64,000 bases of DNA, taken from positions 3,800-67,799 of the forward strand of contig JAHFMX010000001.1 in NCBI GenBank assembly GCA_023267635.1. Direction: 5' to 3'. A model generated the notes under the pieces. That model saw only the letters and a program-made list of their open reading frames with translations, searched no databases and was not told where the DNA came from. The position numbers were made by a program, and so were the translations under genes. Numbering within the stretch: the stretch's first letter is position 1; the number at the start of each line of letters is the position of its first letter. This document shows, in pieces, positions 5,758 to 53,598 of the stretch. The DNA is from a bacterium (GTDB lineage Bacteria; Patescibacteriota; Minisyncoccia; Phycocordibacterales; UBA5272).

Positions 5758-5833
5758 GGTGGAAAGTATAGCATAGCCAGCAAGGTTTTATATAAATATT
5801 CCCATCAGTAATGACACAGTCCAATATTAATTT

Positions 5834-30902: not shown

Positions 30903-30904
30903 AT

Positions 30905-33944: not shown

Positions 33945-33947
33945 AAA

Positions 33948-34283: not shown

Positions 34284-34521
34284 AAGAGGTTGTGTCTACT
34301 TGATAAACCCTCTAGGTAACTTATAAAACAAAATAGGCCCCCTAGTGGTGCTCACAAGAAGATGACCGAAGTCACGCATCCTGTTTCCACATAGAGAGCC
34401 TATGCTATACACGATGCGTAACAACCAACCCCCTTATAAGGGGTGTTTCGATATCTTCTTGTGAGCAAATGTATTATAGCACTTTCATGAAAAGATATTA
34501 AGTAAGTGATAGAATGATAAA

Positions 34522-35409: not shown

Positions 35410-35446
35410 GAAAAGGTAAAAAAACTTAAGGCTGTGGATAACTATG

Positions 35447-35479
35447 AAAAACACCACCGATGAGGTGTTTTTGTTTTGG
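35447..35479 (+). terminator. Rho-independent terminator
   Basis: aaaaacacc-accgatga-ggtgttttt hairpin followed by gttttgg. Confidence 0.55.
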
Positions 35480-35586
35480 TTAAAAAGATGGTCTTCCGCG
35501 TATTTTAAGCATAAATTAAATTCTAAAATTTACAAAGGCAAACAGAAAAGTAAATTGTTTGCACTTAATAATTAAATAGATAAATT

Positions 35587-37722: not shown

Positions 37723-37953
37723 TAGTTTTGAAAGTGGTACAATGGAAGAGCTACACAGACAAGACGAATATGACAGAAGATTGAATCCTGAAGGGGGTCT
37801 ACAATCGTCTTTGTGTAGCAACAATGTACTGTCTTGTAGTTCCCCTTCAGGTTTCTTTGATTCTAATCTCATTTCCGAAGAAGATGCTCTTGATTACCTT
37901 GCTGAGGTATATGTAGACATCTACTTCGATTATATTAAAAAACAAAAATAACC

Positions 37954-39492
37954 ATGCAACCTAATTTAAAAAGAGCTGTTGGATATTATCGTGTATCCAC
38001 AAAAGAACAAGTTGAGGAAGGGAACAGTCTTTCTACTCAAGAGAAAATTTGTAAAGAATGGTCTCGTAAAAATAATTACGAAATAGTAGAACAGTTTATT
38101 GAACAAGGAGAGAGTGCGAAAACTGCGGATAGAACAGAGTTACAAAAACTTTTTATTTATTGTGCTAATAAAAAGAATAACATTGAAGCTGTTATCATCT
38201 ACAAACTAGACCGTATAAGCCGTAACACTGATGACTACAGTCAAATTCGTCTTCTGTTAAAGAAATATGGGGTAGAAATAAAATCTACCACAGAGTTCTT
38301 TGAGGATACTCCTGTGGGTCGTTTTATGGAGAATACAATGGCTAACATTGCACAGTTTGATAACGATATACGCTCTGAGCGTTCAGGTGGCGGTATGCGA
38401 GAAGCTGTTCGTGATGGTCGTTATGTGTGGATGGCACCTGTTGGATATATCAATACTAAAGTAAATGGTAAAGCTACCATTGCTCAAGACCCACTAATGG
38501 CTTCACTTGTTCGTGAAACTTTTGAACTTATTTTAAAAGGCACTCGCACAGTAGAAGAGGTTCGAGTAATTATGGAAGAACGAGGTCTTACTCTTAAAAA
38601 TGGTAAACCACTTGGAAAGTCATACTTCTATAAAGTATTTAAGAATAAGCTATATATGGGGATAATTGAAAAGTTTAATGAAACCCACAAAGGTCTATTT
38701 GAACCAATCATCTCTGAGGATGTATTTAATCAAGTCCAACGTATTCTAAGTGGGAAAGGACGTAAGGAGGTTCAGTATAAAAAAGATAGTGATGATTTTC
38801 CTCTTCGTCGTTTTGTGATAGACAAAGAGAGTAGAAAAATTACTGGAAGTTTTTCAAAAGGAAGAAAAGGTATCAGATATCCATTCTATCGCTTTGGTGG
38901 GAACGGCTCGAATTATAACCGAGATAAATTTGAAGAGCGGTATCAATTATACGTAGATAAATTTTCTTTTACAGAAGAACAGAAGGAAAAATTAGCATCT
39001 AAGATACGAGAACATTTCGGTGTGGCAGTAGAGAAAGAAAAGAAGGATGTTAAAAAACTTTCTTTACGCATCTCTGAACTTCAAACACAACAAACCTCAC
39101 TTATAGATAAAAATCTTAAAGGCATTATTAGTGACGAATTACTCACAAGGCAACTTAGCACCATTGAAGAAGAGTTAATCAGTACAAAACTTAATCTCAC
39201 AAATGCAGAGCAAGTTACTTTTGATGTTGATAAGGCGATGAGTATAATTTCACCATTCCTGAAGACACCTAGTGAGGTGTGGGAGATGGCAGAAATTGAT
39301 AATAAACTCAAATTACAGTGGTTCCAATTCCCATCTGGAGTGTTCTTTGATGGAGAAATATTTGGAACCACTAAAGTAGCTAGTATTTACAATGTAAAAT
39401 CCACGTTTTTGGACGTGGATTCTACTGCTGTGGGCGATAGAGGAGTCGAACCTCTGACATCCACAACGTCAATGTGGCGCTCTACCAACTGA
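37954..39492 (+). CDS. Large serine recombinase (resolvase/invertase N-terminal domain + recombinase domain + zinc ribbon)
   Basis: N-terminus AVGYYRVSTKEQ (catalytic Ser motif) ...IYKLDRISRN; 512 aa; the last 62 nt (about 20 codons) overlap tRNA-Val on the opposite strand. Confidence 0.85.
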   Translation: MQPNLKRAVGYYRVSTKEQVEEGNSLSTQEKICKEWSRKNNYEIVEQFIEQGESAKTADRTELQKLFIYCANKKNNIEAVIIYKLDRISRNTDDYSQIRLLLKKYGVEIKSTTEFFEDTPVGRFMENTMANIAQFDNDIRSERSGGGMREAVRDGRYVWMAPVGYINTKVNGKATIAQDPLMASLVRETFELILKGTRTVEEVRVIMEERGLTLKNGKPLGKSYFYKVFKNKLYMGIIEKFNETHKGLFEPIISEDVFNQVQRILSGKGRKEVQYKKDSDDFPLRRFVIDKESRKITGSFSKGRKGIRYPFYRFGGNGSNYNRDKFEERYQLYVDKFSFTEEQKEKLASKIREHFGVAVEKEKKDVKKLSLRISELQTQQTSLIDKNLKGIISDELLTRQLSTIEEELISTKLNLTNAEQVTFDVDKAMSIISPFLKTPSEVWEMAEIDNKLKLQWFQFPSGVFFDGEIFGTTKVASIYNVKSTFLDVDSTAVGDRGVEPLTSTTSMWRSTN

Positions 39493-39503
39493 GCTAACCG
39501 CCC
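39431..39503 (-). tRNA. tRNA-Val (anticodon GAC)
   Basis: Hand-folded cloverleaf: acceptor GGGCGGT/ATCGCCC, D-arm GCTC-AGTTGGTA-GAGC, anticodon stem CCACA/TGTGG with loop TTGACGT, T-arm AGAGG-TTCGACT-CCTCT, discriminator A; no encoded CCA. Confidence 0.8.
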
Positions 39504-39544
39504 GAATGTCTTAAATATACCATATCAAATAGACCTCTCCCAAG

Positions 39545-39573
39545 TTGAAAGAAGTGTCATTTCGTGGTAGTAT
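39545..39573 (+). promoter_or_regulatory. Sigma70-like promoter upstream of tRNA-Glu (TTGAAA-17-TAGTAT)
   Basis: -35 ttgaaa at 39545..39550, 17-nt spacer, -10 tagtat at 39568..39573, about 45 nt upstream of the tRNA. Confidence 0.4.
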
Positions 39574-39620
39574 ATTTTTTACTTGGCTGTACTATTGTTA
39601 CCTGGTACAGACATATTGAC

Positions 39621-39692
39621 GGCCCCATCGTCTATCGGTTAGGACACCGGCTTTTCATGCCGGTAAGCGGAGTTCGACTCTCCGTGGGGTCA
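39621..39692 (+). tRNA. tRNA-Glu (anticodon TTC)
   Basis: Acceptor GGCCCCA/TGGGGTC, anticodon stem CCGGC/GCCGG with loop TTTTCAT, T-arm CGGAG-TTCGACT-CTCCG, discriminator A. Confidence 0.8.
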
Positions 39693-39798
39693 CCGAGTCG
39701 AGTGCTAGTTCGAGCACTCGAGAAGGGTCGTCACAGACCCTAAAAACAAAAAGAGCTAACGAATATTTCGTTAGCTCTTTTTGTTAGAAAAGTTACTT

Positions 39799-41082
39799 TT
39801 ACACTTGAATAGAAATAGTTTTATTTTTCAAAACTAAGTTACTTTTTATACAATCAAGAACCGACCTTTTTTCTAAAACTGTCCCATCCCTCAAAACAAA
39901 TTTCATATAATTTCTCAAGTCTACTTTTTGTATATCTGCTGTATTATCTTTTCCCAAAAACATTGCTTGCAGTTTCTTAAATTTCTTGATTTCAAGATTT
40001 AACTTCTCGTTGAGTTGTACCTCGTTAAGATCTAGAGTGCTTGCCATTTTCTGAAATTCTTTCAGCAGATCATCTTCGTTTATAGCAGAATTTGTACACT
40101 TTCTGTCTTTGGATTTCGTACATCGATAATATACATGTCTGTTTACTCCGCCACTTTTTAATTTCTTAAATTTCTCATCTGCTGTAATTCCAGATCCACA
40201 TGCTCCGCATTTAACTATTCGAGTAAAGGCAAATTCCTTTCCGTGACTTTTAATAACCTGTGTCTTAATAGAAGCACGAACATCATCGAAGAGTTCTTTT
40301 GTTATTATCGGCTCATGTTTACCCTCGTACCAATTTCCACTTCCCTGTGGGAATTCAAATCTACCGTAATAGAAAGTATTATTGATAATTTTAAAGATGT
40401 TTCCGATACTTAAATAAAACCCTCGATGTGTCTTAAAGTTAATTTCATATCTTAGCCATGAATATACTCTCATGCCACTCCATCTTTCATATGCAATCTT
40501 CTCAAATATCTGCTTAATAATCGGTGCGCGATCCGGATCAATTTCAACCTCACATTTTGCTAGTCTTTCATTTGGTTTTCTGTATCCAGTTGGTGGTTGT
40601 ACTGGCCATAGTCCCATTTCGCACCTTGCTCTCATTCCTCTTTTAACATTAATACTTTTATTATCATTCTCCAACTTCGCTTGAGAACAAAGAATCATTA
40701 AAAGAAACTTATCACTCGGAGAGTTAGTAAATGTCTGACCAAATGTTTTAATTTGAGCTAGTTTCTTTTGATCTATTCTATCTACAAGCTTCCCCAGATC
40801 TCCTGCATTTCTCGAAAGTCTATCGGGTGCCCAAGTAATTATTGCGTTAAAGATACCATCATCAATATCTTTTAAAATCTCTTCAAACACGGGCCGTTGC
40901 CCCGACTCTTTCGCCGAGTGAGATTCTTTTCTTATTTCTGTAACATTCAAACCTTCACGCTCGGCTATTTGCCTCATCTCTTTAATTTGAGAATCAATAG
41001 AAAGAGCTTGTTTTTCTTCAGCTTCGGTTGATTTACGAGCATATAAACAATACTTTAAGTTATCTTTTGTTGTTTCTATCAT
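39799..41082 (-). CDS. Large serine recombinase (paralog of 60687..62006)
   Basis: KYCLYARKSTE (catalytic Ser), SIDSQ, TWAPDRLSRNAGDLG, C-terminal CGACGSG zinc ribbon; 427 aa. Confidence 0.85.
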   Translation of the reverse strand: MIETTKDNLKYCLYARKSTEAEEKQALSIDSQIKEMRQIAEREGLNVTEIRKESHSAKESGQRPVFEEILKDIDDGIFNAIITWAPDRLSRNAGDLGKLVDRIDQKKLAQIKTFGQTFTNSPSDKFLLMILCSQAKLENDNKSINVKRGMRARCEMGLWPVQPPTGYRKPNERLAKCEVEIDPDRAPIIKQIFEKIAYERWSGMRVYSWLRYEINFKTHRGFYLSIGNIFKIINNTFYYGRFEFPQGSGNWYEGKHEPIITKELFDDVRASIKTQVIKSHGKEFAFTRIVKCGACGSGITADEKFKKLKSGGVNRHVYYRCTKSKDRKCTNSAINEDDLLKEFQKMASTLDLNEVQLNEKLNLEIKKFKKLQAMFLGKDNTADIQKVDLRNYMKFVLRDGTVLEKRSVLDCIKSNLVLKNKTISIQV

Positions 41083-41390
41083 ATATACATTAATGACAGA
41101 ACCATAATCCCTGCATAGTCTATGCAGAACTAAAAATGCGTAGCATGGTCGCGATACCTCCTTTATTTATGGGTCCTTTTGTGATAAAATTTGAATTGTA
41201 CCCCATAGTGTTTTTTATATTTAGTGCTTTGTCCCCGAAAGGACTGTTTTCTCTCACCTGTTATAGGCAAAGAGGGGCAGTCCGAGTTCCATAACAGGAA
41301 CCTTTCGGGGTAGCACCGCTATGGGGTACGGCTCGGCTGTCCCTTTTTGTCTTTTTAATTAGCGACAGCCGAGACATAGATCCGTACCCT

Positions 41391-43097
41391 ATGTCTCACA
41401 ACAACTCTGAAAAAGAGCTTTTAGCTCATATAAGTGATCTCGAAAAACAAGTTAAGGTCTTGAAAGACCGGAAGAAATTTGGACTGGTTTGGGAGGATAA
41501 ACCGGAAGATGTCGTTTTACAATGCGAAACAAATGTTCCAATTCTGAGAGAGATTAAAAATAGAAAGTTAGTTTCTGATAATCATATACATTCCAATATT
41601 TTAGTCGAAGGAGATAATTATCACTCACTTTCTGTTTTGAACTATACACATAAGAGTAAGATCGATTTAATTTATATTGATCCACCGTATAACACAGGCG
41701 CAACAGATTGGAGATATAACAATGATTATGTTGATAGCAATGATCAATGGCGACACAGCAAGTGGATTTCTTTAATGAGAAATCGACTATCTTTAGCAAA
41801 AAATCTTCTATCAGAAAGAGGAATAATTTATTGTGCTATCGATCACTATGAATTGTTCACACTAGGATTGCTGTGTGATGAAATTTTTGGTGAATCAAAC
41901 AGACTTGGCGTTATAACGGTTATTCATAAACCTGAAGGAAGACAATTTGCTAACTTCTTTAGCCCATCGAATGAGTTTATGTTGGTATATGCAAAAAATA
42001 AGGCGTATGCTTCTTTAAACCAAGTAATTTTAGATGATGAACAGAAGGAACGTTTTTCTGAGTTTGATGATAAGGGATCGTATTATCTAAAAAACTTTAT
42101 AAGATTGACTGATGGTAAATATAGTCTGAGAGAAAATGCTCCTGATGGTTTTTATCCAATATACGTCAGTGAAGATCTAGGCTCATTTAGTTTAGAAAAT
42201 AAGAAAGGTTACCTCGAAGTATACCCAATTACAGACAGAGGTGTAGAAAGAACATGGAAAACCTATGGGGACACTTTTATGAAGAAAGTGGATGAAGGAA
42301 ACATTATTGCAAAATCAGAAAATGGAAAGATAAATATATACGAAAAGCTTCGTGAAGATCAGGTTATTAAAACCCATTGGAATAAAAAAGAATATCACGC
42401 ATATCATTACGGGACAAAGATTATTGAAGAAATACTAGGAGTCAAAAAGTTTGACTTCCCAAAGTCATTAAACCTTCTCATTGATGTTTTAAAACTAAGC
42501 ACACAAAAAGATTCAACAGTTTTAGACTTCTTTGCGGGATCAGGAACAACTGGACATGCAGTTTTGGAGCTCAACAAACAAGATGGCGGAAATAGAAGGT
42601 TCATCCTCTGTACCAATAATGAAAACCAGATTGCTGAGGAAGTTACTTACGAACGCATCAAGCGTGTAATCAAAGGATACAAGAATAAGAAAGGAGAAAA
42701 AGTTGAAGGACTTGGAGGTAATTTGTCGTACTACAAAACTGATGTCGTAGATATTGAAAGACTGCAGAGGATTTCAGACGAATCAAAGATCAAGATCACG
42801 TATCAAGCAGGAGAAATGATTGCTATTCGTGAGAATACTTTAAATGAATACGACAAAAACGATTGGTGGCAGATTTTTGAAAACGAAGAAAAGAAAACTG
42901 CTATTTATTTCAAGGAAGATAAATCAAAACTTCCTGAGCTGGTAAAACTTCTTGAAAAAGAAAACAAGCCGACCGTTCTTTATATCTTTGGCTGGGGTAA
43001 GAACGAATACAAAAACGAGTATTCGACCAAGAATATAAAAGTCGAAGATATTCCAGAACCAATTATTGAGGTCTATAAAGAAATAAATAGAATTTAA
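41391..43097 (+). CDS. Type III R-M system DNA methyltransferase (Mod), beta-class
   Basis: Motif IV IYIDPPYNTG precedes motif I DFFAGSGTTGHAV; 568 aa; 4-nt gap to the downstream helicase-nuclease. Confidence 0.7.
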   Translation: MSHNNSEKELLAHISDLEKQVKVLKDRKKFGLVWEDKPEDVVLQCETNVPILREIKNRKLVSDNHIHSNILVEGDNYHSLSVLNYTHKSKIDLIYIDPPYNTGATDWRYNNDYVDSNDQWRHSKWISLMRNRLSLAKNLLSERGIIYCAIDHYELFTLGLLCDEIFGESNRLGVITVIHKPEGRQFANFFSPSNEFMLVYAKNKAYASLNQVILDDEQKERFSEFDDKGSYYLKNFIRLTDGKYSLRENAPDGFYPIYVSEDLGSFSLENKKGYLEVYPITDRGVERTWKTYGDTFMKKVDEGNIIAKSENGKINIYEKLREDQVIKTHWNKKEYHAYHYGTKIIEEILGVKKFDFPKSLNLLIDVLKLSTQKDSTVLDFFAGSGTTGHAVLELNKQDGGNRRFILCTNNENQIAEEVTYERIKRVIKGYKNKKGEKVEGLGGNLSYYKTDVVDIERLQRISDESKIKITYQAGEMIAIRENTLNEYDKNDWWQIFENEEKKTAIYFKEDKSKLPELVKLLEKENKPTVLYIFGWGKNEYKNEYSTKNIKVEDIPEPIIEVYKEINRI

Positions 43098-43101
43098 TCA
43101 T

Positions 43102-45429
43102 ATGTTTGCACTTAAACCATTCCAAGAAACAGCGATAGCTAAACTGAAGGATCAGTTTCTTTCATTATGGAAATCGCCACACGATAACATACCTCTTATC
43201 TTTAAATCTCCAACCGGATCAGGGAAAACGATCATGCTAGCCCAATTTCTCCGTGATCTTATAGGAGATCCTCGATTTTATGGAAACGATGTTGCCTTTG
43301 TATGGCTTACTTTTAACGAAGAATCGTATGTACAAAGTAAAAACAAACTCTTTTCATACTATGGTGGTGCTTCCGAACTAGACCTTTTGGATCTTAACGA
43401 CCTCACCAGAGGAAAATTGAATAAAAATTCTGTTTTCTTTATCAACTGGCAAAAAGTCAAAGGAAAATCAAAAGAAAGTAGAAAACTCCGAAAAGATAAT
43501 GAGTGGGGTTTAACCTTTGATAGTTTTATAGAAAAAACAAAAAATGACGGTCGCAAGTTTGTAGTAATAATCGACGAAGAACATATTGGATCCGATACAG
43601 AGCTTGCACAGGAAATCATTGATGGCCTTATTCAGCCGAAAATAACTATCCGTGTTTCTGCTACACCTAAATATCTCCCAAACGCAGAAGATATCGCTGA
43701 ACAAAAAGGTGGATTTGTGCAAGCAAAGCGAGAAGATGTTATTGAAGCAGGACTGATTAAGGAAAAGATTATTTTCCAGACGGAAGAAGATCTCAATCGA
43801 AAGGACTTCAAAGGAATGGATCAGGACGAAATTCTTCTTGAACTTGCATACCAAAAGCGATTAGATCTCATTGAATACTATAAAGAGGTCGGTGTCGAAG
43901 TGAATCCTCTTGTAATGATCCAGCTCCCCAATGACGATCAAGCAAGCAAAGATATAACTACAACTAATAAACAATCTATAGTTCTTAGCTATTTTAAAGA
44001 AAAAGGAGTGTTGGAAGATGAAATTGCTATTTGGCTTTCTCAGGAAAAAATAAACTTAGAATCCATCGAGGATAATAAGTCACCAATATCATTCTTACTC
44101 TTTAAACAAGCCGCTGCTACTGGCTGGGATTGCCCCAGAGCGAGTGTTTTAGTTATGTTCAGAGAGATCAGAAACCCAACATTCGCTATTCAAACTGTTG
44201 GTCGTATTTTGCGTATGCCTTTTGGTATACATTTTGCAATACCAGAATTGAATCTTGGTTATCTATACACGAACTACAAGCGAAATGAGGTGTTAGCAGA
44301 ATATGGAAAGAATAAGACCGACAATCGTCCTGCTATTTATGGAAGTTATAGAAAACCAGAGATTGAATCAATAACAGTTGAATCGGTATTTATGAGCCGA
44401 ACTGATTATAATGACCTCGGAGACTCTTTCCAAGAGACATTTAATGAAGTGGCAAACAAATACTTTGGAATTGGAAAGGATAATCCTGCTCAGGTAATCA
44501 AGAAACTAGAAGCAAAGAGTTTAGAAACTAAACCAAGTGTCACTAATGGTCTTATCGTAGGAGTTGAAATTGACGACTATGATAATTTCACCAAAGAACT
44601 AATTACTGAAGGAGGAAGCCATGACCAAGAAATATCTCAGCATGATCTTGAGCGACTTTATAATTTGCTTTGTTTTAAATTTGTCTCTCATCAAGCTGAT
44701 GAAAACAAAAAGTTTGCTCCTGAACGATCTTGGGGCAAGTTAAAGACAGCACTTAATGTGTGGCTCTTAAAAGTAACTGGAGAAAATCGTCAGAATATCT
44801 ACAAGATTGTAGTAAACGATCTGCTCAGCCCGACAAGCATATTTGCTCCTATTATTGGTATGGCTCTTGAGCAATATCGTCCAATTCGTGAGAAAGAAGT
44901 AAACAAAAAATCTGAACGTTCAAAGCGAGTTGAAACTATCGAGATTCCACGAGAGACACTTTTCTTCACGGATCAGTATGAAGAGATAGAAGTTAAAAAG
45001 TGTGCTATGCAACCTTTTTATATCGAGAAAGATTATAAAGGGGAAGACAATGAAAAAGAGTTTATTAAATTCCTTGAATCAAGCAAAGACGTAGTTTGGT
45101 GGTATAAAAATGGAGATTCAGGAAGTGAGTTCTTTTCGATTTCTTATTATAATCAAGACGAAAATAAGGAAAAACTTTTTTACCCCGATTGGATATTTAG
45201 GACAAAAGATACCGTTTATATCGTAGACACAAAGAAAGGATCTACTGCTGAAATATCCGATACTAAATACAAAGCAGAAGCATTGCAAGAATGGCTTAAA
45301 AGCAAGAAAAACTTTGCAGGAGGTATTGTTGTTCAAGACGGCCCAAACGGCTGGAAGATCAACCAGAATGACAAATACTCTTACACTCCCTCTTTTGATA
45401 AATGGAACAACTTGAAAGATGTTCTATGA
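43102..45429 (+). CDS. Type III restriction enzyme Res subunit (helicase + C-terminal PD-(D/E)xK)
   Basis: Walker A SPTGSGKT, DEEH box IIDEEH, C-terminal YPDWIFRTKDTVYIVDTKKG nuclease motif. Confidence 0.65.
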   Translation: MFALKPFQETAIAKLKDQFLSLWKSPHDNIPLIFKSPTGSGKTIMLAQFLRDLIGDPRFYGNDVAFVWLTFNEESYVQSKNKLFSYYGGASELDLLDLNDLTRGKLNKNSVFFINWQKVKGKSKESRKLRKDNEWGLTFDSFIEKTKNDGRKFVVIIDEEHIGSDTELAQEIIDGLIQPKITIRVSATPKYLPNAEDIAEQKGGFVQAKREDVIEAGLIKEKIIFQTEEDLNRKDFKGMDQDEILLELAYQKRLDLIEYYKEVGVEVNPLVMIQLPNDDQASKDITTTNKQSIVLSYFKEKGVLEDEIAIWLSQEKINLESIEDNKSPISFLLFKQAAATGWDCPRASVLVMFREIRNPTFAIQTVGRILRMPFGIHFAIPELNLGYLYTNYKRNEVLAEYGKNKTDNRPAIYGSYRKPEIESITVESVFMSRTDYNDLGDSFQETFNEVANKYFGIGKDNPAQVIKKLEAKSLETKPSVTNGLIVGVEIDDYDNFTKELITEGGSHDQEISQHDLERLYNLLCFKFVSHQADENKKFAPERSWGKLKTALNVWLLKVTGENRQNIYKIVVNDLLSPTSIFAPIIGMALEQYRPIREKEVNKKSERSKRVETIEIPRETLFFTDQYEEIEVKKCAMQPFYIEKDYKGEDNEKEFIKFLESSKDVVWWYKNGDSGSEFFSISYYNQDENKEKLFYPDWIFRTKDTVYIVDTKKGSTAEISDTKYKAEALQEWLKSKKNFAGGIVVQDGPNGWKINQNDKYSYTPSFDKWNNLKDVL

Positions 45430-45489
45430 GACAAGTGCAAACTATCTTCAACGATAAATAATTATGACTATGAAACCTAGTCGAATTTT

Positions 45490-46545
45490 TTAGTCAGTAT
45501 TACTCATGGTAAAGAAATAATTATTCTTTAACCTCTCAGAAAATCTGTAAGTATCAGCATGAGAAAGAACGCCGAGATAGGACATTAAAGTTGCATGTAC
45601 TTTGTCTTTTGGGATTTCTTCTCGCTTATAGAGTAATATCTTTTCATTTATTTTCCGCAAAGCACGTTTCTGTGTACGCTTACGAACCAAAGTAAAATGT
45701 GGGAATAATACATATCCAAGATAATCAATACCACGATTAAATTTAGTAATCGAGATTTTCTTCGGGTGTATTTGGATCTTCATTTTTTCTTTTAGAAAAG
45801 AACGTATCTGAGACAATAAATGTATGAGATATTCTTTATTCTCGCTTACTACAACAAAGTCATCAGTATATCGTGCATAATGTTTCACCTTGAGTTCGTG
45901 CTTCATAAATTGATCAAAAACATCCATATACACATTCGCAAAAAGTTGAGACGTTAAGTTACCAATTGGTAAACCGCATCTCTCAAAGAGAGTAGATCTA
46001 CTACTTGTAAAACTTTCCACCACTTCTGTCAGGAGGTCCATCAGTTCCTGGTCCTTGATCCGGGAATCAAGCATGGAAAGTAAAATCTCGTGATTAATTG
46101 AATCGAAAAACTTCTCTATATCGCACTTCAAAATATATACATTTCTTGTGTTATTTTTACTTGCTTTGTAGAGCATGGAACGTAGCGCGCTAACTCCTTT
46201 ATGAGTACCTTTACCAATACGACACGAGAAAGAATTATAAATAAAAGTCTTCTCATAGAGTGGGTATAAAGTACTCATGATTGCATGATGAAGTACTCTG
46301 TCTCTCACTTGCGCTTTATGTATATGGCGACGTTTAGGATCTGAAATATAGAACCCGGTATACCCACTGTGGCGATAGGTATGAGATTTTAGTTCTCTGT
46401 GAAGCGAGAATATTTCTCGTTCAAGACTTTTCTCAAAAAGAAGTACATCCGCTTTCTTTTTCTTGTCACGCCTGAACTCTTCCCAAGCGAAAAACAGATT
46501 TTCTGGAGTAATAAGCTTATTAAATAAATTCGTATAGATTCTCAT
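45490..46545 (-). CDS. Diversity-generating retroelement (DGR) reverse transcriptase
   Basis: RT motifs; YARYTDDFVVV (YxDD catalytic box); LPIGNLTSQLFANVYM (the IGxxxSQ motif characteristic of DGR RTs); lies next to Avd, TR and VR. The track lists 45490..46605; the likely start is MRIYTNLF... at 46545. Confidence 0.8.
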   Translation of the reverse strand: MRIYTNLFNKLITPENLFFAWEEFRRDKKKKADVLLFEKSLEREIFSLHRELKSHTYRHSGYTGFYISDPKRRHIHKAQVRDRVLHHAIMSTLYPLYEKTFIYNSFSCRIGKGTHKGVSALRSMLYKASKNNTRNVYILKCDIEKFFDSINHEILLSMLDSRIKDQELMDLLTEVVESFTSSRSTLFERCGLPIGNLTSQLFANVYMDVFDQFMKHELKVKHYARYTDDFVVVSENKEYLIHLLSQIRSFLKEKMKIQIHPKKISITKFNRGIDYLGYVLFPHFTLVRKRTQKRALRKINEKILLYKREEIPKDKVHATLMSYLGVLSHADTYRFSERLKNNYFFTMSNTD

Positions 46546-46890
46546 ATGAATGATAATGATGTTCCAATATTGCGTAAAATTCATGAGTTGTATAAGACAT
46601 TCCATGAATACAGAAATCTAGTTCCCAAACAAGAACGATTCTCTGTGTACGAACGTACAGAAAATATCATCATTGATATCCTTGAGCTTGTGCTTGAGGC
46701 AAGTTATATTCCCAAAGAAAGAAAAGTAATTCTTCTAGAAAAGACGAGCGTAAAACTCAATATCGTGAGATTTTTTATTCGTCTTATGAAAGAAAGTAAA
46801 AGTCTTGATCTGAAGAAATATACACTCCTGCAAGGAATCATTGATGAGGTTGGTCGTATGCTTGGTGGCTGGATAAAGTCTAGTAAGTAA
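46546..46890 (+). CDS. Accessory variability determinant (Avd) of the DGR
   Basis: 114 aa, helical, C-terminal ...DEVGRMLGGWIKSSK resembles the Bordetella phage bAvd C-terminus (EVGRxLGxW) as recalled. On the opposite strand to the RT; the two start codons abut in CATATG. Confidence 0.55.
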   Translation: MNDNDVPILRKIHELYKTFHEYRNLVPKQERFSVYERTENIIIDILELVLEASYIPKERKVILLEKTSVKLNIVRFFIRLMKESKSLDLKKYTLLQGIIDEVGRMLGGWIKSSK

Positions 46891-46939
46891 TAACAAAAGG
46901 TATCCGCTACGGATACCTTTTGCGCTTAATTGATACTTC

Positions 46940-47059
46940 GGAACGAAGGCGGACACCGAGCCATAGTTGTCATTGGCATTCGACACGTTGTTGGTGTTGA
47001 ACTTGAGCTTGTCGTCGTTGAAGTTGAAGAGCGGAGACCCCGAGAAGTCGCCATCCGCA
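46940..47059 (-). repeat. DGR template repeat (TR)
   Basis: 120-nt match to 47441..47560 with 18 mismatches, every one at a TR adenine in the minus (coding-sense) orientation; AAC-rich when read in frame (NFNDDKLKFNTNNVSNANDNY). Confidence 0.8.
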
Positions 47060-47345
47060 ACCGGAGCTTTTACCACTTTCTGCCCATTCCACAAATCACG
47101 AAGTATGATATTTCGCATAAGTCACGATTCTGTATTTAATCTGACAACACAATTGCTTGTTTGTCTTAGAAAGCAGTAAGCAGTATCTCTAGAGCAACAA
47201 CACTGTCACAAAAACCGTAATCGTTGTGATCCTGATTGCATTTTCTCACAGGAGAAAGAGTTCGGTGATAGTAATCCGTGAACTACTATGCACTAACCTA
47301 GACTCACTAGGTAGTATATCAAAAATATAAAAATTGCCTTCGGCA

Positions 47346-47374
47346 AAAGAAAAAATGGCCTCGCAAGCGAGGCC
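47346..47374 (-). terminator. Rho-independent terminator after the DGR target gene
   Basis: GGCCTCGC-aagc-GCGAGGCC hairpin followed on the minus strand by AUUUUUUCUUUU. Confidence 0.55.
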
Positions 47375-47430
47375 ATTCAAGGGTTCAAGGATCAAGGAGC
47401 CAGAAGACTCAAGACCCCAAGGTGGAAGGA

Positions 47431-48366
47431 TCAACCCTGTGGAACGAAGGCGGACACCGAGCCATAGTAGTCATCGGCATCCGACACGCGGTCGGTGACG
47501 AACTCGAGCCCGCCGCCGCCGAAGTAGAAGAGCGGAGACCCCGAGAAGCCGCCAACCGCATACGGAGCGTACTCGTCGCCGGCGCAGTCGGTGTGCAACT
47601 GCTCCCAGCGGACGTAGCGTTCCGGGTGGACGAGTGCCATGCAGCCGAGCGCGAACGCGCCGAGACCGAATTCGTTCGCCGTGAAGCACTCGCGTGCGCG
47701 ACGGACGGAACGGCCACGGTGGCGCATGCCGTACTGGACGGGGACGATCAGGATGTCGCCATTCTGCCCTTCGGCGATCAGGTCGAGCGCGTGGAGCGTG
47801 CGAGCCGATTGCTTCAGGTAGCGGTTCCCCGTTTCGCCTTCGCGGTAGTTGTAGAAGTTCCGCGACTTGCCGAGCTTCTCGAGAACGAGGTCGATGGCGC
47901 GACAGTACTTCTCGGCGGGGTCGGTGACCTCGGGGAAGAAGCGCTTGGCGACGGCATCCACCGACGGGATCGCGAACCAGCCTTCGGCGCCTTGCGGCAG
48001 CTTCATGGTGGGTAGCGTCTTCTCGATGAACTCGCTCACGTAGCCGAGCGACAGGCCGAACTCCTTCGCGAGGATGTCGACTTGCGCGCCGATCGGCTTC
48101 GGACCGCGGTACTCCTTCGGGTACGTGTAGCTGGATTCCACCTCCTCGCTCGCGAACTGGTCGGTGACCGACAGGTTCTTGATGAGTTGGATGGCCGCTT
48201 CACGGATGCCCGCGGAGAACTCGTTGCCGTGTTCGATCACGCGCTGGGCGCCGGGGTTGTCGAGGCCGACCTCTTCGAGGACCTTGTCGATCGCATCGGA
48301 GCCGAAGCGGTTGATCTGCTTCAGTTGGCCGGGGGTGGCTTGGGACTGCTGAGTAATCGCATTCAT
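47431..48366 (-). CDS. DGR target (variable) protein with C-terminal VR; function unknown
   Basis: 311 aa; VR at the C-terminus; the gene is about 65% GC in a roughly 33% GC background; no signal peptide is obvious. Confidence 0.7.
   Translation of the reverse strand: MNAITQQSQATPGQLKQINRFGSDAIDKVLEEVGLDNPGAQRVIEHGNEFSAGIREAAIQLIKNLSVTDQFASEEVESSYTYPKEYRGPKPIGAQVDILAKEFGLSLGYVSEFIEKTLPTMKLPQGAEGWFAIPSVDAVAKRFFPEVTDPAEKYCRAIDLVLEKLGKSRNFYNYREGETGNRYLKQSARTLHALDLIAEGQNGDILIVPVQYGMRHRGRSVRRARECFTANEFGLGAFALGCMALVHPERYVRWEQLHTDCAGDEYAPYAVGGFSGSPLFYFGGGGLEFVTDRVSDADDYYGSVSAFVPQG
47441..47560 (-). repeat. DGR variable repeat (VR) at the 3' end of the target gene
   Basis: Counterpart of the TR; encodes the last about 40 aa (...PLFYFGGGGLEFVTDRVSDADDYYGSVSAFVPQG); the 3'-most 27 nt are identical to the TR (IMH-like GC-rich segment). 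Confidence 0.8.
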
Positions 48367-48506
48367 TGCGTTATCTCCATGGAAAGGTACTACTTTTCGG
48401 TTTGGACTGTCGAAACAGGTACCAGGAATCTGGTCTATATACTATATCACAAAATACACTAAAAGTCAATAGATTGAAATTGCTTAACACTAAAGGATTT
48501 TTAGTG

Positions 48507-50063
48507 TTATTCCACGTCAACGTAATCTGGATGATACAGAATGCTGTCGTCGCTATCACCTAACCAGAACATGATAATTGTTCCCTCGCTTGCATGCTTC
48601 TCCGTTGTTGCATTGATGAGAAGCGAGAATGCATCAGCTAAGTCATCGTGTTTTTCCACTCCAAACCCAACTAGTTGCTCAATGAGGTTCTCACAGCCTT
48701 GTCGTGGAAATTTAATGATTCCAGACTTTATGGATGTGGATGTAAGCGATAGTCGTGTTCGTTTGTCTCCTTTTGGTTTTATTGCCTCTGCTTTAATGCC
48801 ATGCATGTCTAGCATTTGAGGTAATGCTTCTTGGTAAGAAACACTTTCCACAAAGATGGTATCTCTATGGTCACTCAGCATGGTACTTTTGACATTTTTC
48901 ATCAACTCAACTTGCGCTGGGAAATTAAGCTTTTTCGCGATCGGATTAGGGAGAATGTAAATTCTCATTTTTTCTCTACGGCTATACACGTGCGCAAATA
49001 CAAGAGCGGTAAAGTCTGCAGAATCTTTTTCAGAAATTGCTAAGTCAATGCCGACATAGGTACCTCGATATCCTTTATGTCTTGTTCCAGGCAGTTCATC
49101 ATAGTACTGGATCCATTCTGGATAGATGACTTGGTCATCACTTGGAATGATACGAAGAAGGTATTCTCGTTGCCACGATGCTTCGCTAGCAACTTTAAGC
49201 TTCTCGTCTTCAACATCTTTCGCTGTTGGGTATTTACCAGGCCACAAGCAAACATCTTTCTCATCAAGTAGCGGGTATTCCTTGAATACTCCTTTTGTCC
49301 TACCTTGAGCAATCTCTTCTTTGATTCGCATAAGTAGTGAATCTTCGTGAAGCAGGTTACCAACAATGATAAGGCGAGTCTTTCTGTCTCCTGACGGAAT
49401 GACTTCGCTATAGAGCCAGTTGTATGTTCCATTGCGACCTTCTCTTGTTTTAGTAGATTGCACATCCTCCACGTCGTCGCAGATTATCAAGTCTGGACGA
49501 TGTTGGTTGTGGCGTATGCCTCGGATACTCTGTTCAGTTGACGCAACGGTAATTCTTGCACCATGCTTTTTGAAGACGATAGAGAATGAACCCCACTCGT
49601 CACTTTCTTCCTGGAAAGGACCCAGATCTTTCTTTAAAACATCGTTACCCTCAAGTTCGGTGCGAATGTTCATCATGTGCTGTTTTGCTTGCGCTCTAGT
49701 CTGACAAAAGATCACGCAAAACTTCTTTTGCTGTTTTCCAAGAATCGCCCAGATTGGGTATGCAGTTGTAATCATGGTTGATTTACCAGATCCACGGAAC
49801 GCTACCACGTACAGATTTTCTGTTGGACTATGTTCAAGATAGTGAATTACTTCTTTCTGAAAATCTGCCGTTTCATACTTTACATAGTGGGCGTAGTAGA
49901 AATGAAAGAAATATAAGAAGCTATCTTTGGTAATGGATGTTCTCACTAACCTATCTTTCATCATCTTATTCACCAACTTTGTTTCTATGATTTTATTCAT
50001 GACTTTTGGTATTAATCTTTTTAATGGATTTCGATTTGGTGATGGACGCAAGTTTAAGCGCAT
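48507..50063 (-). CDS. Phage terminase large subunit-like protein (ATPase + RNase-H-like nuclease)
   Basis: Walker A AFRGSGKST, Walker B LIICDDVED, C-terminal nuclease-like VGIDLAISEKDSADFTALV...; 518 aa. Confidence 0.65.
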   Translation of the reverse strand: MRLNLRPSPNRNPLKRLIPKVMNKIIETKLVNKMMKDRLVRTSITKDSFLYFFHFYYAHYVKYETADFQKEVIHYLEHSPTENLYVVAFRGSGKSTMITTAYPIWAILGKQQKKFCVIFCQTRAQAKQHMMNIRTELEGNDVLKKDLGPFQEESDEWGSFSIVFKKHGARITVASTEQSIRGIRHNQHRPDLIICDDVEDVQSTKTREGRNGTYNWLYSEVIPSGDRKTRLIIVGNLLHEDSLLMRIKEEIAQGRTKGVFKEYPLLDEKDVCLWPGKYPTAKDVEDEKLKVASEASWQREYLLRIIPSDDQVIYPEWIQYYDELPGTRHKGYRGTYVGIDLAISEKDSADFTALVFAHVYSRREKMRIYILPNPIAKKLNFPAQVELMKNVKSTMLSDHRDTIFVESVSYQEALPQMLDMHGIKAEAIKPKGDKRTRLSLTSTSIKSGIIKFPRQGCENLIEQLVGFGVEKHDDLADAFSLLINATTEKHASEGTIIMFWLGDSDDSILYHPDYVDVE

Positions 50064-50490
50064 GTCGAACTATCTTTGCTTGATCTGGTGTTAGTTCTTC
50101 ATTGTCTTCAGCAGTGCTAATTTCAAGCTTGTTCTTGTAGTTGTCGTTTCGGTGCCTCAACCAAAAACTAATCGCAGGATAGTTTTTCTCTTTTATAAGT
50201 GTGAGTAATTGGCTTTCGCTCATGTCATTTACAAGCGCTACGCCATTTGCTAGCGATTCATCCATTTTCTTGGCGAACATTTTATCCTCACGTCGCCAAC
50301 GGTAGACACTGTTTCTTGATACTCCGGTTTTCTCGCAAGCAACTTGAATTATGGGAACCTTCTCGAGCTCTGCAAAGAATTGGTCTTGTAGCTTATTCTT
50401 TTTCATAGATTGCTTTGTTACCAGTAAGAGCCTCGTAACGCTTGATGATGAGGTCACAGAATCGGGGTTCCAAATCCATTCCGTACACAC
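49993..50490 (-). CDS. Helix-turn-helix protein, phage terminase small subunit-like
   Basis: 165 aa; IIQVACEKTGVSRNSVYRWRRED HTH; paralog of 63080..63490; located between the methylase and terminase large subunit. Confidence 0.45.
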   Translation of the reverse strand: MCTEWIWNPDSVTSSSSVTRLLLVTKQSMKKNKLQDQFFAELEKVPIIQVACEKTGVSRNSVYRWRREDKMFAKKMDESLANGVALVNDMSESQLLTLIKEKNYPAISFWLRHRNDNYKNKLEISTAEDNEELTPDQAKIVRHALKLASITKSKSIKKINTKSHE

Positions 50491-51739
50491 GGCGACCTAG
50501 CTGTTCACCCGCAAGTAAAGTACTACCTGATCCAAGGAAACTATCTAAAATGATGTCCCCGGGCTTTGTACAGCGTTTAATGGCCTTCTCATGCAGTGTT
50601 ATTGGCTTACTTGTGGCATGCTGGTATTCTTTTGATGGAAGTCGCTTTGCTGTCCAGATTTCAAGAAAGTTATCTACCTGAGCAATGAGATCATTACCTG
50701 TAGTAAATTCTTTATTCATGACCTCATTGAGATCTTGAATGGATTCAGCAAGGTGCGGTCGTCCGCGAGTGCCATATACCGCAGGTTCGTATGCTTTATT
50801 GCAATACACTTTCGGCACAGGATTTTGTGAGTTCTTGAGCCATAGACACACACGCTTGTTTGCAACACCAAGCAAACGGTAGATCTCTTGAATAAGACCG
50901 ATGTACACTTGGTCGCAGTAGTAGAAGACGTGAGTGTCTGGACTGGATACCGAGAGGGCGGCGCTAAGAGAATCTTTGATGAAGGCTTTGTATTCTTCGT
51001 ATGAGCGAGTATCATTTACACTTCCGCCGTAGTCTTTGTTGCCACCAATGCCACCGTTGTAGTCTATGGAAATGTTATACACGGGATCCGAATAGATCAT
51101 GCTTGCCTTCTCATCACCGAATAACCGAGCCAGATTCTTTGGATCGGTTGAATCGCCACAAAGGATCTTGTGTTTACCGAGGCGGATGAGATCTCCCAGT
51201 TTTGTCACTGGTTCTATGATTTTCTTTAATTCTTTGTCGACATCGAACGCGTCTTCCTTGGTTTCGTTATTCTCATCCCAGAATTTCGCAAGCTCAATCT
51301 GATCGAATCCTGCAAAGGAAAGCGTTTCCATGTCGAATGACTTAAGGAGGTCGTAATCCCAGTCACCACCGAGCTTGTTGGAGCCGATGAGGTATTCCTT
51401 GGCTTCTTGTTCAGTAAGCTTACGATTGGGGACTCTGATATCTATCTGCTCTTCACCACGTTCAAGGAGTTGTAACGCTCGAATGCGCTGATGACCTGCG
51501 AGAATTGTCCCGTCATAATCTACCGCCGGTATTTCTACGAGATTAAACTTCTTAAGACTTCGCTTGAGATCTGACATTTGCTTGTCAGTGATCTTGCGAG
51601 GATTGACCTCTTGGGGAATGAGATTGTTTACACGTTTTTGGACCGTCGTCCATGTGAGTTTTTTCATGCTGATTTTATTTATTAGTTGTAAATAAAATGC
51701 ATGGAACAGAAAATGCCTATCCCACGCACGAAATAACAA
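50393..51739 (-). CDS. ParB-like nuclease domain fused to DNA methyltransferase (beta-class N6/N4 MTase)
   Basis: N-terminal ParB/Srx motif (LVEIPAVDYDGTILAGHQRIRAL), DPPY-like SDPVYN, C-terminal motif I ILDSFLGSGSTLLAGEQLGRR. Confidence 0.65.
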   Translation of the reverse strand: MLFRAWDRHFLFHAFYLQLINKISMKKLTWTTVQKRVNNLIPQEVNPRKITDKQMSDLKRSLKKFNLVEIPAVDYDGTILAGHQRIRALQLLERGEEQIDIRVPNRKLTEQEAKEYLIGSNKLGGDWDYDLLKSFDMETLSFAGFDQIELAKFWDENNETKEDAFDVDKELKKIIEPVTKLGDLIRLGKHKILCGDSTDPKNLARLFGDEKASMIYSDPVYNISIDYNGGIGGNKDYGGSVNDTRSYEEYKAFIKDSLSAALSVSSPDTHVFYYCDQVYIGLIQEIYRLLGVANKRVCLWLKNSQNPVPKVYCNKAYEPAVYGTRGRPHLAESIQDLNEVMNKEFTTGNDLIAQVDNFLEIWTAKRLPSKEYQHATSKPITLHEKAIKRCTKPGDIILDSFLGSGSTLLAGEQLGRRVYGMDLEPRFCDLIIKRYEALTGNKAIYEKE

Positions 51740-51843
51740 AAGCCGATTGCTTATTATTATTTCTTGCGCGAAATAGGCATGTCCTCGTGGAGATACACTA
51801 TTCTACTTTTTACTACGCAGAAACTAACACTTATATTTTATTC

Positions 51844-52254
51844 CTAACCTTTTCCTTTTGCAAGACCGCGGATGATCCGTTTGCCATTCTTGCTGTTCAT
51901 AAACTCTATTGTATCCTTGCCTGGCACTACGGGTATTCCATCATTCGGGAGTGCAATTAAGACCTTGTACCCATTCGCTTCTTCTTTCTGAACCATTCTT
52001 ACGAAATCAGGATCTGTTTTTAGAAGGTTGAGAGTAAACGTCCGATTTTCAGAAAATGCAGACTTCTCAATATTTGAGTAAATACGATCAGGACTATCTG
52101 TCTCGAACGCCTTTTGTACTTTTTTACCAACCGAAGGAGTAGGTGCTCTTTTAGCAGTATGAAGTGCAATATCCGTAATGCGGATGATTTTATATTTCTG
52201 TCCGTTTTTCATGACAGCTGGCTTTAGTTCGAGTTTGTAGTCCATAAACCTCAT
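51844..52254 (-). CDS. Hypothetical protein
   Basis: 136 aa; its ATG overlaps the stop of the upstream 40-aa ORF (TAATG). Confidence 0.3.
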   Translation of the reverse strand: MRFMDYKLELKPAVMKNGQKYKIIRITDIALHTAKRAPTPSVGKKVQKAFETDSPDRIYSNIEKSAFSENRTFTLNLLKTDPDFVRMVQKEEANGYKVLIALPNDGIPVVPGKDTIEFMNSKNGKRIIRGLAKGKG

Positions 52255-52376
52255 TACTTCTTATTCTTTACCCACTCCACATTATCAGGATTGTTCTGTG
52301 CCTTTTTCTCAGTCACGAATCTACCTGTTTTTGCATCGTGAGGCTGCTCGTTGTTCCAATTATGCTTCTTGCTCAT
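52254..52376 (-). CDS. Small ORF (40 aa), hypothetical, translationally coupled
   Basis: Hand translation: MSKKHNWNNEQPHDAKTGRFVTEKKAQNNPDNVEWVKNKK. It lies between two co-directional genes; not in the ORF track (<60 aa). Confidence 0.25.
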   Translation of the reverse strand: MSKKHNWNNEQPHDAKTGRFVTEKKAQNNPDNVEWVKNKK

Positions 52377-52385
52377 ATGTTTATA

Positions 52386-52658
52386 TTATAGATTATTATG
52401 GATCCAATTTGATACATCTTGTGGAAGGTTAACCCAAGCAGCTGTATCTTTAGTAACAGTTACAACAAGAACCTTATCGTTCGCATCTGTATGCTTTTGA
52501 ATTTGGTTCCTAGTTTCTTCTGCGGTAAAGTTGTTCTTAATCAACCAAACTGATTCCAGCGGTTTCGCCCACACGGCGTATGACTTGAGAAAGGTGATCA
52601 AAGATGTGTAATCCTTGTTCGGTTTAATAAGGTCGTATGATACTAGGTGAGTGAACAT
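52386..52658 (-). CDS. Hypothetical protein
   Basis: 90 aa; first gene of a 3-gene minus-strand cluster. Confidence 0.3.
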   Translation of the reverse strand: MFTHLVSYDLIKPNKDYTSLITFLKSYAVWAKPLESVWLIKNNFTAEETRNQIQKHTDANDKVLVVTVTKDTAAWVNLPQDVSNWIHNNL

Positions 52659-52770
52659 TTGTTTATTATGGTTATGCTGTTAAGTTTGTCAGGGGTTATA
52701 CCTGATAAATCCAGTTTATCAGAATGAAAAGTATCTTGTCAAATCAAATTGAAAAGTATATAATATCAAC

Positions 52771-53100
52771 ATGAAAATACCAGAAAATAAAGGGGAATTT
52801 ATCGGCAAGCAGATCAAGAAAGCGCGTGAAGAGGAAGATATTTCACAGCTTGAACTGGCTAAGGCTGTGGATTTTGAGTCTGCAACAGCAATTTCCCTCA
52901 TAGAATCTGGCGAAAGGAAAATTACTGCAGAGAATCTTGAGAAAATAGCCATCGCCTTAAAAAAAGACATTAAGTACTTCCTGGGGACAGAAGACGAACC
53001 TGTAACTATCGAAGTTGCTTTGCGAGCAGAAAAAAATCTCTCCAAAGAAGACAAGGACGCATTGCTTCGATTCATTGAGCTAGCGAAGAAAAAGAAATAA
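52771..53100 (+). CDS. XRE-family helix-turn-helix transcriptional regulator
   Basis: GKQIKKAREEEDISQLELAKAVDFESATAISLIESGERKITAENLEKIAIAL is a classic HTH_3 (Cro/C1-type) domain. Confidence 0.75.
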   Translation: MKIPENKGEFIGKQIKKAREEEDISQLELAKAVDFESATAISLIESGERKITAENLEKIAIALKKDIKYFLGTEDEPVTIEVALRAEKNLSKEDKDALLRFIELAKKKK

Positions 53101-53598
53101 ATGGAATACACCGATACAGACCTTGGTCCTCGAAAAACTTCAGCAAAAAACCTTGCAAAGAAGCTGATAAAGGATTCTAAGATCAAAGAGGCTCCTGTAT
53201 CGTTAAGAATTGTTATAGAGTGCCTCCAAACGACGCACGATTTGCGCGTAATCGCTCACGGATTTAGCGACCATGTTTCTGGTCTACTTATGAGATGCAA
53301 GCAACTCGACGAAGAGTATTTCGTCATAGGATTCAATGAGAACCAACCTTGGTGCAGGCGTAGATTTACCATTGCCCACGAGATAGGACATCTTCTTTTT
53401 GGTCATACATGTAATCAAAGTGATGATAAGGATCACAACGAAAAGGAAGCAGATATATTTGCGGCGGAGTTGTTAATACCAAAGGAATTTTTGAAAAAGG
53501 ATTTTAAGATTACTCCAAAGATTCCAGATTTAGCCAAGAAATATCTCGTAAGCCAACAGGCAATGGGTATTAAGATCACGACGGACCGTCTTATCTAA
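53101..53598 (+). CDS. ImmA/IrrE family metallo-endopeptidase (DUF955)
   Basis: FTIAHEIGHLLFGH HExxH motif; its start abuts the XRE regulator's stop, giving the canonical XRE-ImmA pair of mobile elements. Confidence 0.75.
   Translation: MEYTDTDLGPRKTSAKNLAKKLIKDSKIKEAPVSLRIVIECLQTTHDLRVIAHGFSDHVSGLLMRCKQLDEEYFVIGFNENQPWCRRRFTIAHEIGHLLFGHTCNQSDDKDHNEKEADIFAAELLIPKEFLKKDFKITPKIPDLAKKYLVSQQAMGIKITTDRLI

Follow-up and report, generated by a model that had tools for sequence, protein, structure and literature searches.

The stretch analysed here, called the window throughout, is 64,000 nucleotides (nt) long and covers positions 3,800 to 67,799 of the forward strand of contig JAHFMX010000001.1 (assembly GCA_023267635.1), from a bacterium of the lineage Patescibacteriota; Minisyncoccia; Phycocordibacterales; UBA5272. 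Between 45490 and 48366 of the window lies a diversity-generating retroelement (DGR). An earlier note, made from the sequence alone, had described it as complete, with a reverse transcriptase (RT), the accessory variability determinant Avd, a template repeat (TR), a variable repeat (VR) and a target gene, and this description is supported by our analysis, to which a second allele of the target gene, P0001, adds evidence of activity. The features of the locus are given below with protein lengths in amino acids (aa), G+C content as GC and G+C content at third codon positions as GC3.

45490..46545, minus strand: DGR RT gene, 351 aa; RVT_1 match at E = 8e-29; motifs IGNLTSQ and YTDD
46546..46890, plus strand: avd, accessory variability determinant, 114 aa; PF22296 and NF033474
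46893..46923, bidirectional: hairpin of terminator type separating avd (3' end) from the TR; stem of 14 pairs, with an A-run on one side and a T-run on the other
46932..46941, minus strand: conserved post-TR motif CCGAAGTATC, where TR and VR diverge
46940..47069 (core 46940-47059), minus strand: TR with 29 adenines, from the ungapped alignment to the VR
47070..47306, minus strand: structured 5' domain of the DGR RNA, helices P1-P5, about 235 nt, from covariation
47313..47321, minus strand: element TGATATACT resembling an extended -10 promoter, putatively that of the DGR RNA
47334..47378, minus strand: two terminator-like hairpins downstream of the target gene, from a terminator scan
47431..48366, minus strand: target (variable protein) gene, 311 aa, 64% GC, GC3 0.86, with the VR at its 3' end
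47441..47570 (core 47441-47560), minus strand: VR, about residues 266-308 of the target protein
48441..48469, minus strand: promoter-like site of the target gene, TTGACT-17-TATAGT with a TG extension; 10 of 12 consensus matches only

The TR core aligned with the VR core without gaps at an offset of 501 nt with 18 mismatches, and when these were tabulated by base all 18 had T in the plus strand of the TR and hence A in the coding (minus) strand. The earlier note had reported 18 differences in a 120-nt repeat pair, all at TR adenines, and that count is confirmed by the ungapped alignment. The changes from TR to VR on the coding strand were A>G in 13 cases, A>T in four and A>C in one, and a 16-mer taken from the repeat occurred exactly twice in the window against an expectation of 0. 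The 3'-most 27 nt of the two repeats (46940-46966 and 47441-47467) are identical with 63% GC, as had also been noted before, and TR and VR diverge right after this block. On the 5' side the homology stretches about 10 nt more, to about 47069/47570, and this extension contains 3 extra mismatches, 1 at a TR adenine and 2 elsewhere; TR adenines thus account for all 18 mismatches of the 120-nt core and for 19 of the 21 in the repeat when extended to 130 nt. A 127-aa open reading frame (ORF) at 46735-47118 on the minus strand, which covers the TR, is the TR read in the frame of the target and is probably not a gene.

The target protein consists of an N-terminal helical region and a predicted C-terminal C-type-lectin fold, and the VR, whose core spans roughly residues 269-308, lies at the 3' end of the coding region within this predicted fold, which is the placement by which a DGR target is recognised. 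The protein is small, without recognisable domain and without signal or transmembrane features; searches against Pfam, NCBIfam and PHROGs gave no matches, and a Foldseek search against the PDB gave nothing significant. It has 2424 homologues, the named ones from Patescibacteria, in which most of the length is conserved and the last 40 residues or so are hypervariable. In the VR part of the genes of this family the frequency of A at third positions is 0.005.

The RT and Avd identifications are also borne out. The translation of the RT contains both motifs that the earlier note had listed, YxDD (here YTDD) and IGNLTSQ, together with the RVT_1 match. RTs of the DGR type have the pattern [I/L]GxxxSQ, into which IGNLTSQ fits, where retroviral RTs have QGxxxSP. 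We placed the start of the RT at the ATG at 46545 (351 aa) and not at the listed ATG at 46605 because the homologues align from that residue and abut avd. RT homologues with 46-89% identity lie beside A-biased TR/VR pairs in dozens of loci, and the relatives of both the RT and the target come from metagenome-assembled genomes (MAGs) of Patescibacteria. The 114-aa ORF that had been proposed to be Avd scored 62.8 bits against PF22296 (bAvd), whose curated cut-off is 40, and 82.1 bits against NF033474 (DivGenRetAVD), whose curated cut-off is 80. The start codons of avd and RT are divergent and stand back-to-back at CAT|ATG, so that the palindrome CATATG described previously is real.

When the target gene of the window was compared with P0001, which is the nearest allele and comes from another sample, 17 differences were found in 936 nt. 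All 17 lie inside the 130-nt TR-homologous stretch and none in the remaining 806 nt, and 13 of the 17 are at TR adenines. Such a pattern is the footprint that would be expected of recent mutagenic retrohoming, and we consider that the element is active now or was so recently because the P0001 allele differs only within the TR-homologous stretch. It could be argued instead that the element is a decayed or domesticated remnant with TR/VR differences that date from the past and an RT that has ceased to mobilise the TR; the island on which it lies has no phage structural genes and looks degenerate, and activity is argued here from alleles and not from read-level diversity data. This is very unlikely, as all DGR ORFs are intact, the catalytic motifs of the RT are present, Avd is above the curated cut-offs, there are zero non-adenine mismatches in the 120-nt core, and the allele from the other sample has no substitutions outside the VR region. 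The reading that we hold with high confidence is, therefore, that this is an active DGR of the Patescibacteria, or Candidate Phyla Radiation (CPR), with the standard layout of that lineage, on a mobile island in a genome of about 37% GC.

Several observations weigh against this reading. The libraries used contained no DGR-specific RT model, and the best NCBIfam match of the RT was a group II intron RT below cut-off. The argument for activity rests on one allele pair from different samples, and 4 of the 17 differences in P0001 are off the adenines of the TR of the window; that strain, whose TR is outside its contig, may have a slightly different TR. The promoters and transcript ends proposed below are putative, being consensus matches only. 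Lastly, only one hairpin was found 3' of the VR by the terminator scan and the test for sites of the IMH and IMH* type (IMH, initiation of mutagenic homing), a terminator-like stem about 60 nt downstream of the IMH-like block, and it looks like an ordinary terminator and not like a cruciform of the BPP-1 type. GC-rich inverted repeats of the IMH type have been found in only 34% of DGRs (Wu et al. 2018, PMC5758913).

The comparative part of this work covered 80 species-level genome loci collected with the target family, six further places, and 80 metagenome loci collected with the RT. In 38 target-seeded loci a repeat partner was found for the VR, mostly with near-pure adenine-specific mismatches, and pooled over these loci 636 of 724 mismatches were at adenines; A-biased TR/VR pairs were also present in 41 RT-seeded loci. 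In L008, L011, L029, L044, L049 and L080 the VR is best matched by a repeat some 1.1-1.4 kb off that has non-adenine mismatches, and this repeat we take for the VR of a further target paralogue, arranged in tandem. In several of these six loci the flanking ORF with the highest GC3 is also unusually GC-rich.

The earlier note had regarded the divergent placement of avd as unusual and as not among the documented variants, and this did not hold. Wu et al. 2018 (NAR 46:11, PMC5758913) named this arrangement, TR-(avd)-RT with a reverse-strand avd, Architecture B3, and it makes up 90% of the CPR DGR set in that study; the locus in the window has this core order, with avd on the opposite strand, in a Patescibacteria host. 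Among the related loci with both RT and Avd, 33 of 37 show target(+), Avd(-), RT(+), and in the remaining four the RT/avd pair is upstream of the target in opposite orientation. In all 33 loci only a small gap separates the start codon of avd from that of the RT, and in 10 of them the gap is exactly 0 (CAT|ATG). The divergent layout is the normal architecture of the CPR lineage. In nine loci (L017, L023, L077, L090, L101, L127, L147, L160 and L162) the TR-(avd)-RT module has the opposite orientation to the target, with TR and VR on different strands, and therefore the target and the core module are separable units. A run of 10-11 G was seen in the short stretch between avd and RT in the two distant relatives L067 (about 11830-11867) and L080 (about 7420-7457), and it could be a slipped-strand phase-variation switch for the expression of RT and avd.

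As the DGR itself is routine for Patescibacteria, the interest of this locus is in two other properties, the structured 5' domain of the DGR RNA and the GC-island target. With regard to the first, VR and TR are about 500 nt apart in most loci, with blocks of conservation in the spacer. The RNA domain was aligned over 24 loci and its structure was predicted with RNAalifold, and the alignments of the spacer and of the region after the TR covered 27 loci. RNAalifold gave 45 pairs, of which 39 have compensatory double changes. Standard pairs filled 94.3% of the cells, compared to 74% in shuffled alignments and about 47% when the 3' partners were slid, and 245 cells were changed on both sides, compared to 74 and about 45, respectively; none of 500 shuffles reached the observed pairing values. 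The closing helix P3 has 12 pairs (47168-47179 with 47070-47081) and ends exactly where the homology to the TR starts.

A covariance model, R1, was built on the P3-P5 part and tested on 80 RT-seeded loci outside its building set. It matched 62 of these 80 independent loci, always on the strand of the RT, and the matching loci include some with targets from other protein families. In loci with a detected TR/VR pair, the end of the match was usually within a few nt of the start of the TR homology, for example at 7484/7485 in L113, 2799/2800 in L094 and 6328/6329 in L090. The window contains a single match, and there were no matches in eight phage DGR loci. In an Rfam 15 cmscan of 45400-48500 at E <= 1 the only match was a chance-level one to suhB on the terminator of the target, and the RNA flanking the TR matched none of the motifs RT-1 to RT-19 (Weinberg 2017), which were part of that scan. 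A structured domain of about 235 nt 5' of the TR is not mentioned in the literature searched, a scope outside which Paul et al. 2017 lies. The covariance-modelled domain makes the DGR RNA of this CPR clade a concrete object with testable boundaries and delimits the TR. To our knowledge, the Bordetella DGR RNA is the only DGR RNA with a solved structure.

Further elements of this RNA were found by conservation. In the spacer alignment a partly conserved 'gaTATAnT' block follows the terminator of the target, and the partly conserved TGnTATAnT at 47321-47313 was preferred as promoter over the one that a sigma-70 scan had placed at 47209-47182, which was set aside. On the other side nearly all of the 27 loci have a CCGAAGT-type motif after the TR, and CCGAAGTATC is a candidate priming region or IMH* region. 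Pairing of the post-TR AGTATC with the invariant GATACT of the 5' domain was considered and is not claimed, since the variants AGTCTC and AGTCGC showed no covariation by eye. A strong hairpin is predicted after the TR in all 27 loci examined, with a stem sequence that varies by locus. Handa et al. 2024 (preprint), who examined only 40 nt upstream and 100 nt downstream of TRs, described a stem-loop just downstream of the TR and an upstream-downstream duplex, the 'cPRT Stop', CPR DGRs included; by analogy, the hairpin at 46893-46923 may also be their Avd-binding stem-loop.

From these elements the locus would comprise four transcription units. The first would be the target gene, read on the minus strand from 48366 to 47431 from a promoter of its own and ended by its own terminators, and the second a stand-alone non-coding DGR RNA of about 415 nt, running on the minus strand from about 47306 to 46893 and made up, from its extended -10 promoter on, of the 5' domain, the 130-nt TR, the CCGAAGTATC motif and the hairpin, with the boundaries being putative. 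The third unit would be avd on the plus strand, convergent on the DGR RNA and sharing the bidirectional hairpin with it, and the fourth the RT on the minus strand, divergent from avd with back-to-back start codons and with its expression presumably driven by a promoter within avd or by transcription that reads through the hairpin. In the mechanism that we propose, RT and Avd would bind the DGR RNA and reverse-transcribe the TR with misincorporation opposite adenines, priming would take place at or near the post-TR motif, and helix P3 would act as the stop for cDNA synthesis, an analogue of the Bordetella 'cPRT Stop' with a different topology. The cDNA would then replace the VR, by which codons on the C-type-lectin face of the 311-aa protein would be rewritten.

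The second property, the GC-rich composition of the target gene, is the most anomalous feature of the locus. The window as a whole has 37% GC, the boundaries of the GC island are sharp and coincide with the target ORF, and the target is 7 standard deviations above the other 42 long ORFs, whereas GC3 is host-like in the RT (0.34) and in avd (0.31). An assembly chimera or a contaminant in an AT-rich contig would produce just such an abrupt compositional jump. However, the identical gene with the same AT-rich upstream neighbours is present in two other assemblies (L005 and L006), the TR, 500 nt off in AT-rich DNA, matches the VR, and the same pattern recurs in 80 species-level MAGs from many studies, so that an artefact of this kind can for practical purposes be dismissed.

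Across the related loci the mean GC3 was 0.72 for the target, compared to 0.40 for RT, 0.42 for avd and 0.42 for flanking ORFs; the excess is thus not present in the RT or avd of the same cassettes. The target was GC-richer than its flanks in 87 of 87 loci. In the 81 non-redundant loci with usable flanking ORFs the excess in GC3 was 0.28 on average and positive in every one, including hosts with GC3 of 0.6-0.78, and in 71 of the 81 no flanking ORF of 200 aa or more reached the GC3 of the target. Along the gene GC3 stays uniformly high, without a clear gradient away from the VR. At four-fold degenerate sites the frequencies in the target were A.10, C.40, G.29 and T.21, compared to A.24, C.25, G.22 and T.29 in the background, which means that A and T are both depleted, A more so, and that C and G are both enriched, C more so. 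The GC3 of the target follows that of the host with a slope of 0.71; on the logit scale the slope is 0.80 with a near-constant offset of +1.2, which at synonymous sites raises the odds of a G or C over those of the host by a factor of about 3.4. The excess is not confined to one protein family either, as 14 RT-seeded targets without BLASTP similarity to that of the window had a mean GC3 excess of +0.26; these GC-rich CPR targets form two further families, and the three families are mutually without BLASTP similarity (E < 1e-5). Seven phage DGR targets, in contrast, had no such excess (mean +0.03, ranging from -0.02 to +0.10 relative to the GC3 of their own genomes), with only the VR-containing end elevated. 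The literature searched, with Paul et al. 2017 again outside its scope, contains no mention of a whole-gene GC excess in CPR DGR targets.

Several simple causes were considered. That the GC excess is a general property of DGRs was rejected on the small sample of seven phage targets, and dependence on an adjacent RT was rejected since the excess was +0.29 whether an RT lay within 4 kb or not. Erosion at A positions throughout the gene, caused by long cDNAs, was rejected as the sole cause because T is depleted too, C rises more than G, and there is no gradient. An overlapping antisense gene was rejected because antisense open stretches are no longer than in synonymous-codon shuffles. The codon bias of a highly expressed gene is unlikely, with ribosomal protein S20 only 0.07-0.10 above background in two loci and G-ending codons favoured over A-ending ones. 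The 197-aa ORF at 47422-48015 on the plus strand is the codon-aligned antisense frame of the target, open as a by-product of GC richness and probably not a gene. In L041 a 358-aa ORF at 4981-6054 on the minus strand, which is not target-homologous, has a GC3 of 0.83 against a locus median of 0.46 and may be another GC-island gene of a different family.

The histories of the genes within the cassettes are not the same. Pairwise identities of RT and Avd are correlated with r = 0.79, whereas those of RT and target are correlated with r = 0.26. In L022 and L025, whose RTs are 89% identical to that of the window, the DNA identity is 83-94% over RT, avd, TR and spacer and 75-79% over the 3' third of the target, whereas it is only 36-69% over the 5' two-thirds of the target, and therefore the N-terminal part of the target was replaced and the part matched by the TR was kept. 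The discordance, as judged from these identities, indicates target swapping, and frequent allele replacement could feed either of two explanations of the GC excess, a pool of un-ameliorated genes or GC-biased conversion.

The first of these would mean that a GC-rich target, together with the TR, came in recently by horizontal transfer from a donor of high GC and joined an RT-Avd module that was resident and AT-rich, so that the GC island is an un-ameliorated foreign gene. The sharp edges of the island, its coincidence with the ORF, the discordant histories and the replacement seen against L022 and L025 speak for this, and Wu et al. 2018 (PMC5758913), who saw a GC difference of 5% or more from the host in about 20% of whole DGRs, read such deviations as horizontal transfer. 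On the other hand, the excess is universal and one-directional in all 81 loci, GC-rich hosts included, and a shared GC-rich donor pool would not give a target GC3 that tracks the host. Homologues at 45-65% aa identity should be saturated at synonymous sites, yet the excess is kept; the named homologues are Patescibacterial with no GC-rich reservoir in sight, and two further target families have the same excess. We therefore regard recent acquisition as improbable, and simple foreign origin does not fit the GC excess.

That the excess is one-directional and tracks the host argues instead for a maintained force. As candidates for this force we see selection that acts on the DNA or mRNA of such diversified genes and GC-biased conversion linked to their unusually frequent allele replacement. 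Our interpretation has two separate parts, that CPR DGR targets are held at a gene-wide GC excess by a persistent gene-specific force and that CPR DGRs have an RNA scaffold, protein-binding or acting as a stop, 5' of the TR, and for the two jointly we put the chance at somewhat below even, so that they are offered as a tentative proposal. The GC3 signature marks CPR DGR targets, including orphan copies without a nearby RT, and could be used for finding them, and the excess calls for an evolutionary explanation in terms of selection, biased conversion or recombination dynamics on hypermutated genes.

The DGR is on a mobile island that adjoins two tRNA genes, and its neighbours include a serine recombinase, a type III restriction-modification pair, terminases, a ParB-methyltransferase and an M78 peptidase. 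The neighbouring features of the window, with the strand where it was recorded, are as follows.

28218-30902 and 30905-33013: type III restriction-modification pair, Res with Mtase
35587-37722: Prim-Pol
37954-39492 and 39799-41082: serine recombinases
39430-39694: tRNA-Val and tRNA-Glu, flanked by Prim-Pol and the two serine recombinases
41391-43097 and 43102-45429: type III restriction-modification pair, Mtase with Res
48507-50063: large terminase, adjoining the DGR
49993-50490: small terminase, adjoining the DGR
50393-51739: ParB-methyltransferase, adjoining the DGR
53101-53598: M78 peptidase, adjoining the DGR
57784-59898, plus strand: heavy-metal P-type ATPase
60687-62006, minus strand: third large serine recombinase, beside the P-type ATPase

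The part from 28218 to 45429 has the appearance of integrative elements in tandem at a tRNA site. The island beside the DGR has no capsid, portal or tail genes, and its terminase-bearing part at 48507-53598 could be a decayed prophage or else an island of the satellite type; according to Wu et al. 2018 (PMC5758913), an association of CPR DGRs with phages is essentially unknown. The neighbours of the DGR recur in L001, L025, L028 and L033, and the synteny TerL-target-TR-avd-RT-Res-Mtase recurs in L025, L028 and L033. The stretch with the third serine recombinase and the P-type ATPase has a raised GC of 0.45-0.51 and may be another inserted element.

When the locus is compared with known systems, it is closest to the CPR DGRs, which form a clade of their own (clade 2) with targets without recognisable domains (Roux et al. 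2021, PMC8144416). It shares with those DGRs (B3, PMC5758913; clade 2, PMC8144416) the core order TR-(avd)-RT, the reverse-strand avd, the host lineage and the adenine-specific TR/VR differences, and with clade 2 also the small targets without recognisable domain, signal or transmembrane features; nothing in its gene layout differs. The variable protein TvpA of Treponema denticola and other DGR proteins with the C-type-lectin fold, in contrast, have no detectable sequence similarity to the target of the window, and the N-terminal helical region of about 120 residues is specific to the window target family as compared to variable proteins of the TvpA type. The phage DGRs that were checked also differ in that their targets are not compositionally deviant. 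With the BPP-1 DGR (mtd-avd-TR-brt) the locus has in common an RT and Avd, a TR of about 130 nt, adenine mutagenesis, a VR at the 3' end of a target with a C-type-lectin fold (predicted here), a 3'-terminal block, rich in GC, that is identical between TR and VR, and a stem-loop just downstream of the TR. Unlike here, all BPP-1 genes are on one strand. A further difference is in the RNA: in BPP-1 the scaffold 'Sp', 140 nt long, is 3' of the TR, between TR and brt (Handa et al. 2018, 2024), and only 20 nt upstream of the TR are needed, whereas the DGR in the window has only about 50 nt after the TR and a large conserved structured domain 5' of it. The helix that abuts the 5' edge of the TR likewise pairs upstream with further-upstream sequence in the window, whereas in BPP-1 it is a duplex of upstream with downstream sequence. 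With a scaffold on the other side of the template than in the Bordetella DGR RNA, the generality of 'cis-priming plus stop' becomes testable.

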